From Paraspadella gotoi (lineage: Eukaryota; Animalia; Chaetognatha): a DNA stretch of 64,000 nucleotides. The stretch covers positions 9,915,458 through 9,979,457 of the forward strand of contig CM119267.1 of the NCBI GenBank assembly GCA_051294375.1. Reading direction: 5' to 3'. Each line of letters starts with the position of its first letter. Positions within the stretch are counted from its first letter, which is position 1. The translations under genes and the position numbers were made by a program. Under the pieces are notes generated by a model. It was not told the origin of the DNA. It was given only the letters and a program-made list of their open reading frames with translations, and ran no database searches. Positions 1,050 through 63,680 of the stretch are shown here, in pieces.

Positions 1050-4000
1050 CCTTTAGTTTTTTCCACGTCAGGATGTCCGGCTTCACCCAAAAGCCTAATC
1101 TTGCACGAGACGGGGATGGAAAGTCCTTTGACCAGCGTCGTAAGAATCAATTTAACTTTTTCCGCCCGAGTCAACAGAGCGGCGCCCATTCCGCCTTTGA
1201 TAGAGTAGGCTTTGGGACAGCCCATATTCACGTCGACGGCGGAAACGAGATCTTCCACCATACGGGCTGCCGCAAGGGCGCGCTGTATGAAATAAAGATC
1301 GGTCCATCCAATGTGTTACGGCGTTGTGACTTTCTTTTCACGTGTATTTTATGGGCATCACATGACTAGGAAATTTATATATAACAAACGTCTTAAGGAG
1401 GATAACTACTCAGCAAAGTTTTATTTAAAACAACCACACATTACACGAAACATGCCGCATGAAAGATATTTTGTTACCTCGCGTCGGGTCATTCTTTTTT
1501 AGTCATTTAAGTTGACCTTACCTGACCTTATCTTTTCACCGTTCTCGTCGCTTTCTTGTGGCTTTCTTTCGGCCGAAAACCTCGTCACTTGTTATTCAAT
1601 CAGAATCATTTTTAAAGAAAAGATCGGCCTTCTGCAACAGTAGTTTTTACGGATCCAAGGATTTATTACAAATATTTTTTCGACTTTTCCTTGATTTGCC
1701 ATGGAATTATCTCTACAAAAATACAAAAAATTCACAATTTATTCTATATTTTTCGACGTTTTCTTTACGCTTCAAGATTTAGTAAGATACTACGAAATCC
1801 TTGCTCCTTGTCTAAATCTGTTCATCCGACGGCCGATGCCTCGAACGCGCGACCCCGCAGGCATAGAAAATACAAAAGATTTTCTACACCGCATTTACTT
1901 TGGGATTACGTGATCATAGTTTTGCACTGAATCAGAATTCCGTCTTTTATTCACAATAATTATCTACAAATCTCGATCACAAAATTAATTAATTACAAAT
2001 AATTAATTTATTACTTATTTATTAATAATTAATTAATTAATGCAGCTCAAATTTACATTTAATGTAAAAATAAAAAAGCATAATCAAATAGTGAAATAGA
2101 TTGTTTGTTTTTTCCCTTTTAATTCATTTCCACTTGGACGATTCCATCGAAACCATTTCCTGCTCAATCAAACACTTTCCTACCCACATACAAAATTTGT
2201 TGTCAATCACCCCATTCACTCATGTGTAATTGGCGTTCAAATAGTGAAACTTTTTTTTTTTCCTATTTTAACTCATTTTCACTCTGACGATTCCATTGAA
2301 ACTCGATTTCCAGCTCAATTACACACTTTCCTACCCACACACAAAATTTCATTCCAAGCCATCCATCAAATCACGAGTAATTGGTGCTTTTTGCTAGGGT
2401 GGGACGGACGGACATAATTTTTTTGCATAATTTATCATAATTCGATGTTTTGACTTGATATAAGTGAATGCCTGACAAGATTGGGGGGGCGGACCGACAA
2501 AGTGAATTATAGAGCCGGAATCTGCTGTAAGAAGATCTGGCTAAAAATCTTCACGTTTGCAAATGATGATTTTTTTTTTTAGCGGCGGGCTTTTTGTTTA
2601 TTTCTGAGCTTTAACCCAAACCCTAGGTTGTAGTTCATTCAAATAGCAATGTCGCATGAGTCACAATTAAGGTTCTAGTTGGTTGGCGACTTTACTACGG
2701 CGATATCACGAAAGCCCTGGTGGTGTCGCCAATACCCTCAATGGTGACGTCGCCAATACCCTCACTGTTGACGTCGCCAATACCCTCACTGTTGACGTCG
2801 CCAATACCCTCACTGTTGACGTCGCCAGTAATAAAAGTAATTAATATAATGAAAGGCGCGAGTCTCCCATGTCTCCCGTACCCGGGCCAAGGCCTCCCAT
2901 ACATTTCCATGCCTCAACCCTAACCACCTTCGACGCGCAAACTGTGGGCTTTTCTAACCCTTACCCGGGCCTCCTGTTCAACTCCGTTCCTCTCCCCAAA
3001 CCCAGGCCCTGGCCTCCAGTACATCTCTGTTATTAAGGGACTGATAGATTAGTAGATTGATAAATGATAAATTAGAATATAATAAAAAGACAAGTATTGT
3101 GGACTAAAATCCACCAACCGTTCATCATCGGCCATTGGTGCCGGAGGCAAGACATTCGCCTCCCAACCCAAAGGTCCGGGGTTTCTCGCCCGGTGGTCGT
3201 CTGGCAGTTAAGAGGGACGGTGCGCTTAACCCGCCTGTAATACGGTGTTACAGCCTGATCCGAAGCTCGGGGACTGCTTATATTGAACGGTTCTGTCATT
3301 AACACTTATCAATAATTACTGTCTCTTCACTAGTAATAATAATGTGGATGTATACATTTAAAGAGATCTGCAATGTACATAACAAAAAATGGAATCTCCG
3401 AACAATTTAGTAGTCTGCAGCAATGGATTAGTGCTCAGAAGAAAAAATATAAGGACGTATTTTTTTTTCATCTTATGCTGCAGTAGATTGCATCAACCTT
3501 CTGACAGCAACAATAGTGACAGAAATGACAGCATTTCTAACAGGCGCGGTCCCAAAAGCATGTGCAGCCTTCTCTGAGCTCTGAGAGAAGGTCATGGTTG
3601 CCGAATGTGAATCTTTTTAATTGATTGTGTTATCATTACTTTTTAGAAATGTACCAATTTTCATTCAATTTTTTTTATTTACCCATCCAAACAATTTTTT
3701 TAGTCTCAAAAAAGCTTGACTTTCCTGTACTTCAAATTTTAGTCCAGAAATAGCTCGAAAACCCAGTACAGATAACAAGTATTCAACTATTCATATAGGC
3801 AGACTTACATCCGGATCGGATGTTCCCATTTGAAAGACCAGGGCATGGCGTTCCTTCGATGGGCAAGTGCGAAAAATAGGTGCCGCCTGTGCGTCCTCCT
3901 CTAGTTGAAAATCCACAGTTCCAAGTTTCAAATTTTCGATTCTTTTGCACTAAAAGAGAAACAATATTCAAATTCTCTCACAATCCAATTTGATTTCCCA

Positions 4001-4170
4001 GTCGCTTTTGTACTACTCACCATTAGGATCCTACGATCAATGATTTCTTCACAAAACACCAAGTCTGCGCCATAATTCAATGCTAATAGTCTTGCGGGTA
4101 ATGTTCCAACCCGTACCATGGGCGCTAAAATAACTTTAGCCCCACTATACTTTACTTTATCGGTCTCCAT
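1050..4170 (-). CDS. DUS2: tRNA-dihydrouridine(20) synthase 2, 5' part (exons ~4170-4021, 3949-3809, 1283-1051; the rest lies beyond the window's left end)
   Basis: [40 protein letters not shown] and [18 protein letters not shown] motifs of the Dus TIM barrel. GT-AG introns join the three exons in frame. Confidence 0.92.
1950..2546 (-). mobile_element. HINE/DINE-1-like non-autonomous element, family A (partial copy)
   Basis: On the minus strand it starts TTTTTAGCCAGATCT..GCAGATTCCGGCT (subterminal repeat plus short inverted copy), followed by GTCC microsatellite. It is close to 11580-12175 and to fragments at 5700-6340. Confidence 0.6.
2724..2829. repeat. 24-bp tandem repeat (GACGTCGCCAATACCCTCACTGTT, ~4.4 copies)
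   Basis: Directly visible contiguous units with no spacers. CCCTAA-like words occur nearby (2620, 2918, 2955). Confidence 0.9.
3130..3335 (+). mobile_element. tRNA-derived SINE-like or pseudo-tRNA head with a tail shared with 13436-13490
   Basis: GGCCATT..GGTGGTC acceptor-like stem, CTCCCAA anticodon-like loop and degenerate T-arm CGGG..CCCG. The downstream CCTGATCCGAAGCTC.GGGACTGCT..TATTGAAC recurs at 13436. Confidence 0.45.
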
Positions 4171-4342
4171 AAGTTTTTCTTCCTAAATATGGACATTTCA
4201 TCAAAAAACAATACTATTTCTCCTCAAGAGTAGTTAACGCAATAAAGATCAACAATTATCGTTATCAATTATCGTCAGCCGATTTTTATCAAACACTCGA
4301 GAGACCATTAGATAAATTATAATAGTATATTACAAGTTCGCA

Positions 4343-61864: not shown

Positions 61865-62726
61865 ATTGAAGTCTTTAGCAGCTAATAGGCTACATGGTTT
61901 AATATACGTAAGAATTATATTAGCAATTTATTTTTCTTTATTCTATGTATAGTTACATAGATTGAACTCAAGGTGGCTTCGACTCACTATAGCTTTTTAA
62001 TAAATTGTCTTAGATGGTTCCAGCGCAAACAAAGCTAGCAAAACGTAACTCGACCTAATAATGAATTAATATCGCACAGTAGGAGCTACAACATATACAG
62101 AAAGAATTCAAGTACATGCAAATATCCAAACAAGGAATATTGTATGACATTGTAAATTATATTGTTCTTTTCACCAAGTGTGCTCGACTGAATATCTAAA
62201 GAAAGGGACTTTGACTGCACGACCAATCAAATGTCCTCCTTCAAACAATGACCATATTTTCTAAGGCCACAAAATTCTACCTATACTATCTGATAATATT
62301 AGCAGATCTTACGAATTTTAATGGTTTAAATTTGTCCTTCAATTTAAAGTTTACACGTTGGTTTTTTTTTACTAGAATAAAAATTCATACGGTTAGCATG
62401 ATTCAGAAAGGAACTATGAAAATTTTTTTCAAATTTAGGTTAATATAAATCAACCATTAGCAAAAAAAAATGAAACAAAGGGATCGTAATAGTACAAAAA
62501 CAGAACCGAGACTAGATCCACAAAAGAGGACGCTTTAAGAAATAAATTAAAATGAAACCGTAGCATCAACTCCGATAGAAATTTCGAATAAACTGCGGCA
62601 AAATTTATTTTCAAATTGAGGCTTCTAATTTTCTGGTTACTGTAGTGTGTACTACTGTGAAGAGAATAAAATAAAGAAAACATTAACAGCCGCGGGAACA
62701 ATTTAGTGACGGAGTCCATAAGCAGT

Positions 62727-63680
62727 TTAGCAGGATTCGCCGTAGACCGATTCATCGCTATAAGCGATATATAGAAAGAAGTCTTCCTCATGATGTTCCT
62801 GTAAACAAAATTTAAAGAAAAAATAAAACATTCTCAACATTCACTCCAATTGAATTTTTCTAAAGGCGGACCTGATAGAGTGATCCCATGGTTGCGCTCG
62901 TGGGCGGAATGACGTTGTTGACAAAGAAAAAGAGGGCATCCTCGGGTCGCAGGTGAATCCTTTTCCGAATAAGAAAGTAGAATTGACCGACGGTCAAGTC
63001 CGAAGGAACCAGGTACTTCTTTTTGTCCAGATCACCGATCCGCGCTTTGGGAGCCTTCTCCACAATCACTGGAACGCTATGAAAACGAAAATGGACGGGT
63101 AAATTTTTGAAGAAACACGAAATTATGTTTTACTAGCTGATAAGTAAGACTACAATTAATTAATTGATTAAACGCTTAAATTTGTTTTACTCGAATTTTT
63201 ATATCTTTTGAGTAACAATGTATAAACATTTTTTTACTAAAACAAAATGGTAAAAATTATTATCTACGTCGCTACCCTAACCCTTATCGACCCTAAACCA
63301 CTCCTAACCAAAGTCGGCGAATGTAAACAAATTGTAGCAAGTTCATCTTCAAACTAAATTTGGTAAAATTTTACTTTCGCCTTTTGGCTTCTTTTAAAAA
63401 ACAATTTAAAAATAAATATTTTTTAAAAAAAATTTAAAAAAAATATAATACCTAATTATTTTAACCTTAAACCCCCCTAACACTACTGACCCCTAAACCT
63501 AAACCCCCTCACTCCAGTCGGCGAAAGTAAAATGATGGTTATGGTAATGAGAAAAATAGTACCTAAACATTTTTAAAGCTAAATAAAAATGATTTACCGA
63601 TCTGGATATTTCTTTCTAATCTTTTCTCCTTCCGCTCGCCGCTTCTCAAAGGGGTGCTCTTCTTTGTATTGCCACTTCAT
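62727..63680 (-). CDS. GABARAP: GABARAP/Atg8-family autophagy protein, 3 exons
   Basis: [55 protein letters not shown]. Confidence 0.97.
63270..63535. repeat. Small intronic repeat/MITE-like insert with CCCTAA-like words
   Basis: Two blocks of degenerate CCCTAA followed by AGTCGGCGAA.GTAAA, with an inverted TTTTACTTTCGCC between them. Confidence 0.4.

Follow-up and report, generated by a model that had tools for sequence, protein, structure and literature searches.

Gene content and strand of the array

The window, a 64,000-nt stretch of the genome of the chaetognath Paraspadella gotoi, carries 21 genes arranged head to tail on the minus strand over more than 62 kb, from GABARAP (ATG at 63680) to a dihydrouridine synthase (ATG at 4170), and the array is open at both ends (Table 1). 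The earlier note had reported 21 consecutive one-strand genes over this distance, and the gene models confirm it, with 21/21 on the minus strand. A family match to Pfam, PDB or a named homologue was obtained for 19 of the genes; the other two are orphan open reading frames (ORFs), the larger of which had no Pfam match and a best Atlas score of 0.76, which is not significant. The 3' part of the dihydrouridine synthase was not found within the window.

Table 1. Genes and elements of the window in minus-strand order; names preceded by "presumably" are our assumption.
Feature	Position	Strand	Evidence
Unpaired strong acceptor AG upstream of GABARAP	ends 63747	-	Acceptor score 13.4
GABARAP/Atg8, 3 coding exons	62727..63680	-	Pfam ATG8, gene model; RNA joint 62797/62871
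Tiling by three spliced contigs of run X1 (records 3, 2 and 1, end to end) over seven genes with their six spacers	48585..63077	-	
WD40 protein (presumably WDR18), 3 exons	60435..61864	-	Pfam WD40; RNA spliced at both introns
Sm protein E (SNRPE), 2 exons	59927..60309	-	Pfam LSM; intron spliced in RNA
GPATCH1-type protein, 2 exons	56589..59762	-	Pfam DUF1604 and G-patch; intron spliced in RNA
Predicted CCT3 trans-splice acceptor	ends 56338	-	SL at matching 5' UTR place in orthologue L002
CCT3 chaperonin gamma, 4 exons	54262..56279	-	Named homologues; RNA spliced at 3 introns
Unpaired acceptor AG, 60 nt ahead of the LRRC61 ATG	54022..54023	-	Acceptor score 10.1; RNA contig break
LRR protein (presumably LRRC61), single exon	53120..53962	-	Pfam LRR_4; RNA record 1 of run X1
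DSTYK kinase, 6 exons	48645..52742	-	Named homologues; RNA joints for 3/5 introns, rest fit RNA-contig size
Rubicon-family protein (RUN and Rubicon homology domain), exons 2-4 partly resolved	41131..47912	-	Pfam RUN, RH_dom; gene model
Orphan single-exon ORF, 523 aa	39315..40886	-	Coding score
Predicted 5'-UTR intron of C-clamp gene	38838-38782	-	Splice scores
C-clamp protein (SLC2A4RG/ZNF395-type), single coding exon	36046..38529	-	PDB 7dta, E 1.8e-11
Membrane-anchored alpha/beta hydrolase, 2 exons	33523..34723	-	Pfam Abhydrolase_6; gene model
733-nt element with terminal inverted repeats	32730..33462	.	Introns of FBP1 and of the Rubicon gene contain related copies
Fructose-1,6-bisphosphatase (FBP1), 2 exons	31073..32637	-	Pfam FBPase; gene model
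Sec1-family protein (presumably VPS45), 5 exons	25456..30593	-	Pfam Sec1; gene model
Glutathione peroxidase (GPX), 3 exons, active-site in-frame UGA	24291..25260	-	Pfam GSHPx; gene model
SECIS-like hairpin, GPX 3' UTR	24114..24180	-	Rfam SECIS_1 24.7 bits (below the gathering score of 35 bits); fold
SARAF, 3 exons	22604..23994	-	Pfam SARAF; gene model
Orphan single-exon ORF, 157 aa	21955..22428	-	Coding score; no Pfam match
Endophilin A (BAR and SH3), 9 exons	18021..21133	-	Pfam BAR, SH3; gene model
Predicted 5'-UTR introns upstream of SEC61G	donors 16516, 15480	-	Splice scores
SEC61 gamma (SEC61G), 2 coding exons	15074..15352	-	PDB and Pfam SecE
Dual-specificity phosphatase (presumably DUSP11), 2 exons	13690..14669	-	Pfam DSPc; gene model
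dNK-fold complex I subunit (presumably NDUFA10), 8 exons	4343..13173	-	Pfam dNK; gene model
Dihydrouridine synthase (presumably DUS2)	1034..4170	-	Pfam Dus

In a leave-one-out codon model, the minus frame ranked first for 19 of the 20 genes tested, the exception being SEC61G, whose minus frame ties with its shadow frame, and both orphan ORFs scored as coding on the minus frame. None of the 99 plus-strand ORFs of at least 45 aa outside exons and none of the eight long shadow ORFs in the window matched Pfam, by which hidden plus-strand genes were rejected. The Rfam scan of the window gave no match at gathering score. The gene models contain 53 cis introns, all GT-AG, 11 of which are confirmed in RNA.

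The 20 stop-to-ATG gaps range from 125 to 2668 nt. Eight of the nine short gaps given in the earlier note were reproduced exactly (125, 164, 172, 175, 195, 296, 299 and 309 nt); the ninth, 237 nt, was not, the gap between the Rubicon-like gene and the following ORF being 244 nt. Only short gaps had been quoted there; 7/20 exceed 700 nt. Four of these (785, 821, 1322 and 2668 nt) could hold promoters. Most of the 885-nt gap between the hydrolase and FBP1 is occupied by the 733-nt element, which leaves 152 nt, and the SECIS-like hairpin in the GPX-SARAF gap ends about 60 nt ahead of the predicted SARAF acceptor (24052). According to the available text of the P. gotoi operon paper, operons of this species, defined by gaps <250 bp, hold 18% of genes and at most nine genes each (PMC12460157). 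Such spacing was found at 11 of the 20 junctions, namely the six covered by RNA, four more with a stop-to-ATG distance <250 nt and one by way of the SECIS-like element; five further junctions likely fit, and the remaining four are the gaps of 785-2668 nt.

RNA cover, spliced leader and 3' ends

The RNA comparison covered the window right of position 44000, and 14 of the 20 junctions lie left of DSTYK, beyond the listed contigs. From GABARAP to DSTYK, all six spacers between the seven genes are tiled by spliced contigs of run X1, and this chain spans gaps of 862 and 377 nt. Minus-strand GT-AG introns account for 11 of the 15 listed joints, and 17 of 23 depth bins lie within 1 unit of exon-plus-spacer cover at zero intron cover, the other six deviating. 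Four of the covered junctions lie inside a single contig (two listed directly, two by RNA-contig-size arithmetic); at the other two, contig ends abut, 1 base apart in one case and 0 in the other. The 0-base break separates the CCT3 contig (ending at 54023) from the LRRC61 contig (starting at 54022) exactly at the unpaired AG; 25 and 5 terminal contig letters are left unaligned there, and their sum of 30 equals the usual contig overlap, while at the 5' end of record 3 two letters are unaligned, not five. A single value, the bin depth of 149.6, suggests that the DSTYK-Rubicon junction is also covered. Runs X2 and X3 consist of short low-depth pieces, some of them in spacers, which show presence, not bridging, with three spliced joints in X2, and run X4 holds only an 86% relative of SNRPE. 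A contig over two genes does not equal a single transcript, and de Bruijn assembly can join overlapping UTRs or outrons and drops rare branches. An assembly artefact was rejected for the seven RNA-tiled genes.

Both contigs found by a clade-specific pattern (L001 and L002) encode CCT3 with 92% identity to that of the window, and both start with the published end of the chaetognath SL2.0 (17/17 nt in L001, 26/26 nt in L002); the leader evidence concerns one gene, in 2/2 orthologue contigs from relatives. On RNA of the present locus the leader was not seen among the loose contig ends listed, but its mRNAs would probably carry it too. The SL2.0 end has no copy in the window, where the best match has 7 mismatches in 26. 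In trees that hold no named chaetognath protein, CCT3 falls into a 100%-supported clade of eight rows, seven of them environmental proteins, and DSTYK lies outside all named phyla sampled, adjoining Lophotrochozoa. CCT3 has a C-terminal motif in common with Branchiostoma, yet an amphioxus affinity was rejected, as the tree does not place it with amphioxus. The two trees and the leader match led us to set aside other phyla; they make a chaetognath host very likely, albeit by indirect evidence.

Acceptor-like AGs 30-110 nt ahead of the 21 ATGs have a mean score of 5.9 versus 4.7, and the observed mean was reached by 6 of 1000 dinucleotide shuffles; the excess is modest, with weak sites at WDR18, DUS2 and the two orphan ORFs. 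Apart from those named above, an acceptor is predicted at 52875. Poly(A) hexamers occur in 13 of the 20 spacers and are missing from seven, and were set aside as evidence because their frequency is near chance for the composition. A general rule of 5'-UTR/3'-UTR pairing per cistron was rejected, since a long match was present at CCT3 only (1/20 genes). The 0-base break between CCT3 and LRRC61 resembles the RPS14-PCNA operon of Spadella cephaloptera, in which the distance from poly(A) to acceptor is 3 bases (PMC2481426).

Origin of the one-strand run

It is probable, in our view, that in this array several trans-spliced operons follow one another, all facing the same way, and that they are likely transcribed as polycistronic units, resolved into single mRNAs by spliced-leader trans-splicing and probably fed by internal promoters as well; the chain likely extends far beyond nine genes, the longest operon reported for the phylum. 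RNA polymerase II would enter at few promoters, one at or upstream of GABARAP and others probably ahead of the C-clamp gene, endophilin and SEC61G, and would continue through several genes, with introns removed in cis. Trans-splicing would add the 36-nt leader to each downstream mRNA at an unpaired AG some 30-130 nt ahead of its ATG, and the upstream mRNA would end at, or adjoining, this acceptor, so that a spacer would comprise only a 3' UTR and a 5' UTR. Since the polymerase need not halt where a 3' end is formed, read-through could supply a neighbouring gene of like orientation but would run against one of opposite orientation, a bias that would lengthen the one-strand run past the tight operons. 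The very long polycistronic units proposed in the earlier note hold in part: a polycistronic, trans-spliced organisation is supported by the known SL-operon lineage, the six RNA-covered spacers, the SECIS-like element shortly before an acceptor and a second chaetognath locus that is alike, whereas a single giant unit or a kinetoplastid-like genome is not supported, given the long gaps, the predicted 5'-UTR introns at two of them and the many cis introns.

Intercistronic regions of C. elegans measure about 100 nt. Read-through over colinear housekeeping genes past annotated operons, with spacers of up to kilobases, is found in its wider polycistronic units, a parallel to the read-through proposed here (bioRxiv 10.1101/817130), but nematodes have an operon-specific SL2, which P. 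gotoi lacks according to the available text (PMC12460157). The array shares with chaetognath SL operons, as far as the accessible sources describe them, the phylum, a head-to-tail order of unrelated housekeeping genes and retained cis introns, would probably also share the leader family and an upstream 3' end beside the downstream acceptor, and differs in having at least 21 genes and in keeping strand over gaps of up to 2.7 kb, while the published operons have gaps <250 bp and at most nine genes (PMC2481426; PMC12460157). Ciona operons without intercistronic DNA are alike in that genes abut directly, which the CCT3/LRRC61 break fits, and that an operon-specific leader is lacking; they differ in their leader and are mostly of two genes, the largest of six (seven by SLOPPR), and no long one-strand runs are reported in the accessible text of these papers (PMC2760879; PMC7986045).

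An unlikely alternative is that the window is an outlier, in which ordinary short operons and lone genes, all with promoters and terminators of their own, point in the same direction by chance. The probability of 2^-20 (~1e-6) given in the earlier note overstates the surprise, because chaetognath operons were already known, and is a per-site figure, not one per genome. For a genome of about 22,000 genes, 0.011 runs of at least 21 genes are expected at random and 0.06-0.11 when the reported P. gotoi operon junctions are forced to one strand, or more if operons cluster. With 11-16 of the 20 junctions operon-like, 4-9 remain free, for a chance of 1/16 to 1/512, and the window was picked for this very trait. 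Against coincidence stand the 862- and 377-nt gaps already contained in the RNA-covered chain, and the Spadella BAC 35A21. In its gene table, published in 2008, the plus strand is given for all 14 named host genes that have a strand entry, over 120 kb, although this is one clone, the entry is missing for one host row and predictions that lack a SwissProt match are left out; the four minus rows of the table are transposon proteins. Seven of the 13 gaps between these genes exceed 1 kb (five exceed 8 kb), and all seven keep strand (chance 1/128) in a clone that was not strand-selected as far as its paper says, in contrast to the present window. Because the BAC shows the same pattern, long one-strand runs may be a phylum trait of chaetognaths. 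A literature search, with most subscription papers outside its reach, found no paper on such runs in this phylum, and the P. gotoi operon paper has no strand-run analysis in its available text and does not use the word "strand" in three supplements (PMC12460157).

A single polycistronic unit of at least 21 genes and more than 62 kb under one promoter, as in the directional gene clusters of kinetoplastids, appears improbable to us. The absence of a strand switch or plus-strand gene in the window, RNA cover that is unbroken wherever contigs are listed and the 120-kb run of Spadella all agree with it. Kinetoplastid clusters are long one-strand arrays in which SL trans-splicing separates tens to hundreds of unrelated genes; it acts on nearly all mRNAs, and cis introns are almost absent. 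The long run of unrelated genes, 21 here with open ends and 14 in the Spadella BAC, is alike, but the many modelled cis introns are not, and promoters are likely to lie inside the array, where sequence hints occur at two gaps. Motifs and splice scores predict them: 5'-UTR introns are predicted ahead of the C-clamp gene and SEC61G, and motifs resembling ETS sites and GC boxes occur in a GC/CpG patch before the former. Together with the four gaps of 785-2668 nt, the longest of which holds 11 poly(A) hexamers, these features argue against one unit. So do the nine-gene limit of the known operons and the share of trans-spliced genes in P. gotoi, 10,197 of 21,072 in the available text, with about half of genes not trans-spliced (PMC12460157).

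That the genes are monocistronic and trans-spliced, with promoters within the upstream gene and overlapping transcripts that assemble together, is very unlikely: contigs cannot separate overlap from read-through and many genes of P. gotoi are trans-spliced without belonging to an operon (PMC12460157), but the shared strand would be left unexplained, promoters within coding exons would be needed at six or more consecutive junctions, and tight chaetognath junctions are established as operons (PMC2481426; PMC12460157).

Possible directional domains in animal genomes

Animal operons have been described as short: most have two genes, and the maximum is six or seven for Ciona and nine for P. gotoi. 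The run of at least 21 genes here and that of 14 genes in the Spadella BAC suggest that operons delimited by a distance cut-off are fragments of much longer directional domains. Caution is needed with short-read assemblies and gene predictors, which will merge such genes. We propose tentatively, and with considerable doubt, that throughout the genome chaetognath housekeeping genes are grouped into directional domains, each of tens of genes and 60 to >120 kb, which polymerase II enters at few points and reads through without terminators. These domains would be an animal counterpart of kinetoplastid clusters that the 250-bp definition of operons has overlooked. If this is true, arrow worms would be the animal case nearest to the kinetoplastid genome layout, and the output of their housekeeping genes would be set largely post-transcriptionally.

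Orientation of the array and its chance expectation

From 63680 down to about 1030, gene models built across the whole window from ORFs, splice sites and family matches comprise 21 genes, every one on the minus strand, and the one-strand array described in the earlier note is thus real and was correctly seen. Family or homologue support exists for 19 of these genes, and the minus frame ranked top in 19 of 20 genes, including both orphans, in a leave-one-out codon model. None of the 99 plus-strand ORFs outside exons in the window matched Pfam. For six genes the analysis covered the domain, and the name is putative: we take the WD40 protein to be WDR18, the LRR protein LRRC61, the Sec1 protein VPS45, the dual-specificity phosphatase DUSP11, the dNK-fold protein NDUFA10 and the dihydrouridine synthase DUS2. 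The two orphan ORFs may be specific to the lineage, having joined the array without bringing a promoter. In the longer one, the C-terminal third looks globular.

Features of the array, its transcript contigs and its repeats (window coordinates unless a contig is named)
Feature	Position	Strand	Description
Genes 1-7, right to left		minus	GABARAP, WD40 protein, SNRPE, GPATCH1, CCT3, LRR protein, DSTYK
Genes 8-14		minus	Rubicon-family protein, orphan ORF, C-clamp protein, alpha/beta hydrolase, FBP1, Sec1 protein, selenocysteine GPX
Genes 15-21		minus	SARAF, second orphan, endophilin A, SEC61G, dual-specificity phosphatase, dNK-fold protein, dihydrouridine synthase
Orphan ORFs	40886-39315; 22428-21955	minus	both intronless, inside the array
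Alpha/beta hydrolase	34723-33523	minus	two membrane segments (predicted) and a stretch rich in Cys and Arg at the N-terminus
In-frame UGA of GPX	25116-25114	minus	
SECIS-like hairpin	24180-24114	minus	in the 296-nt GPX-SARAF gap; score below the Rfam cut-off
Record 3			2889 nt; spans GABARAP, WD40 gene, SNRPE
Record 2			5445 nt; spans GPATCH1, CCT3
Record 1			4779 nt; spans LRR gene, DSTYK
CCT3 UTR elements	56325-56313; 54087-54075	minus	5' UTR and 3' UTR, perfectly complementary
CCT3 tail	54262-54320		12-residue motif common to Branchiostoma floridae CCT3 (P0256), in an otherwise variable region
3' ends of CCT3 contigs	L001 2097-2148; L002 2101-2223		extend past acceptor-like AGs
Non-autonomous elements	33462-32730; 32285-31816; 47803 onward; 64000		short terminal inverted repeats; in one spacer, two first introns just past the donor, and upstream of GABARAP
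255-nt GC-rich repeat	4733-4967; 6996-7250; 7452-7707		three copies in one dNK-fold gene intron
Long palindromic repeats	47025-47580; 10421-10753		in introns; very high X1 RNA depth

The chance of 2^-20 put forward earlier holds for one site but not genome-wide, as 22,072 genes give about 0.011 runs of 21 at random. With the P. gotoi operon junctions fixed, 0.06-0.11 such runs are expected for the same gene number, and therefore the window by itself could be an outlier built of ordinary operons that share a direction by chance. We consider this unlikely, because in the independent Spadella BAC 35A21 all 14 strand-listed named host genes are also on one strand (plus), from base 99 to 119,826 (Table S5, PMC2481426). 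This count excluded rows for transposons and recombinases, rows without a name and one without a strand, took a misprinted start as 100187, and draws on a table that omits predictions without a SwissProt match. Seven of the 13 host-gene gaps exceed 1 kb and five exceed 8 kb, and the four minus rows are all transposon proteins. In the available part of their paper, the authors remark only that several genes have a common orientation. The reading of the array as one giant unit, which the earlier note had raised, is unproven and quite improbable.

RNA cover and spacer anatomy

The RNA assembly X1 contains 0.87 of the words of 53101-63100. Its contigs were placed on 44001-63395 only, where minus-strand GT-AG introns lie at 11 of 15 joints among the matches listed, and three spliced contigs (records 1-3) tile GABARAP-DSTYK. 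In 17 of the 23 bins, depth fits these three contigs with the introns left uncovered; the six deviating bins lie at a low-complexity tract, repeats or ends. Two gene-to-gene bridges are listed directly (60123-61256 and 52559-54022), and the lengths and joints of the records imply two more. Records 3 and 2 are one base apart, 29 nt past the SNRPE stop, while records 2 and 1 meet with zero bases between, the boundary falling precisely on an unpaired AG that lies 60 nt upstream of the LRR gene ATG. Unplaced terminal letters number 25 and 5 at the latter junction and 2 at the 5' end of record 3. A poly(A) tail and the five letters common to the SL1 and SL2 ends could account for the 25 + 5 letters; against this, the two numbers also add up to a contig overlap, and record 3 leaves 2 letters rather than 5. 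A contig across genes is not proof of a single transcript, which leaves room for overlapping monocistronic genes, an explanation we regard as very improbable.

From right to left, the 20 stretches between one stop and the next ATG measure 862, 125, 164, 309, 299, 377, 732, 244, 785, 1322, 885, 479, 195, 296, 175, 821, 2668, 404, 516 and 172 nt; eight of nine previously quoted lengths were reproduced exactly and one was not. Acceptor-like AGs 30-110 nt upstream of the 21 ATGs have a mean of 5.9 versus 4.7 in dinucleotide shuffles (reached by 6 of 1000) and outscore intron interiors. The SECIS-like hairpin matches the in-frame UGA of GPX and ends about 60 nt before the best acceptor of its gap. 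The 885-nt hydrolase-FBP1 gap shortens to 152 nt once an inserted 733-nt inverted-repeat element is removed. In P. gotoi, 10,197 of 21,072 genes are trans-spliced and 18% lie in operons of up to nine genes, defined by gaps <250 bp (PMC12460157). Given the RNA cover and this spacer anatomy, 11 junctions fit this published definition and five more probably do. The four remaining long gaps (785, 821, 1322 and 2668 nt) are, judging from their sequence, likely internal entry points; 5'-UTR introns are predicted in two of them, and one contains a GC-rich patch whose motifs resemble ETS sites and GC boxes.

CCT3, its relatives and the leader

In trees, CCT3 forms a clade with seven environmental proteins (100% support), and DSTYK pairs with an environmental protein that shares 87% identity with it over the aligned columns, outside every named phylum sampled, beside Lophotrochozoa (51 of 120 matches included). 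A pattern from the C-terminal peptide of the CCT3 clade retrieved two transcript contigs of relatives, L001 and L002, both encoding CCT3 with 92% identity. The chaetognath leader SL2.0 (Marletaz et al. 2008) stands at the start of both, as its last 26 nt in L002 and its last 17 nt in L001, and the window sequence after the AG at 56338 aligns with the L002 5' UTR downstream of the leader. These results make it very likely that the window comes from a chaetognath. The 3' extensions of both contigs look as if they reach the 5' UTR of the next gene, but their length does not suffice to name it.

The CCT3 UTR complementarity is shared by the window (13 bp) and the two relatives (12 and 11 bp) around one common 9-nt core; one flanking pair is A-U in L001 where the window has G-C. 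Conserved base pairing between these distant elements may close the mRNA. Other window genes gave no comparable match (next best 8 bp), and 1 of about 400 non-cognate pairs reached 13 or more.

A proposed one-direction chain of polycistronic units

We favour, with moderate confidence, a one-direction chain of polycistronic units. A few promoters would serve the chain, with read-through across most junctions; unpaired acceptors would receive the leader, and the 3' end of each upstream mRNA would form at or beside them. In Spadella, the poly(A)-to-acceptor distance is 3 bases (PMC2481426). The strand may be kept across long gaps because a polymerase that runs on past 3' ends would give an advantage to neighbours in the same direction.

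SL operons are already established in chaetognaths, and the tight junctions work like them and probably are such operons. In the portions of the sources available, Ciona operons abut directly and hold up to six or seven genes (PMC2760879; PMC7986045), and multi-gene transcription units beyond the operons are also seen in C. elegans (bioRxiv 10.1101/817130). The layout resembles a kinetoplastid cluster, a class to which the array, with its 53 modelled cis introns, does not belong. In the literature searched, we found no quantification of long one-strand chaetognath runs; what is new is how long the run is and that it recurs in a second species, Spadella. For chaetognaths, with operons already on record, long directional runs are a live possibility.
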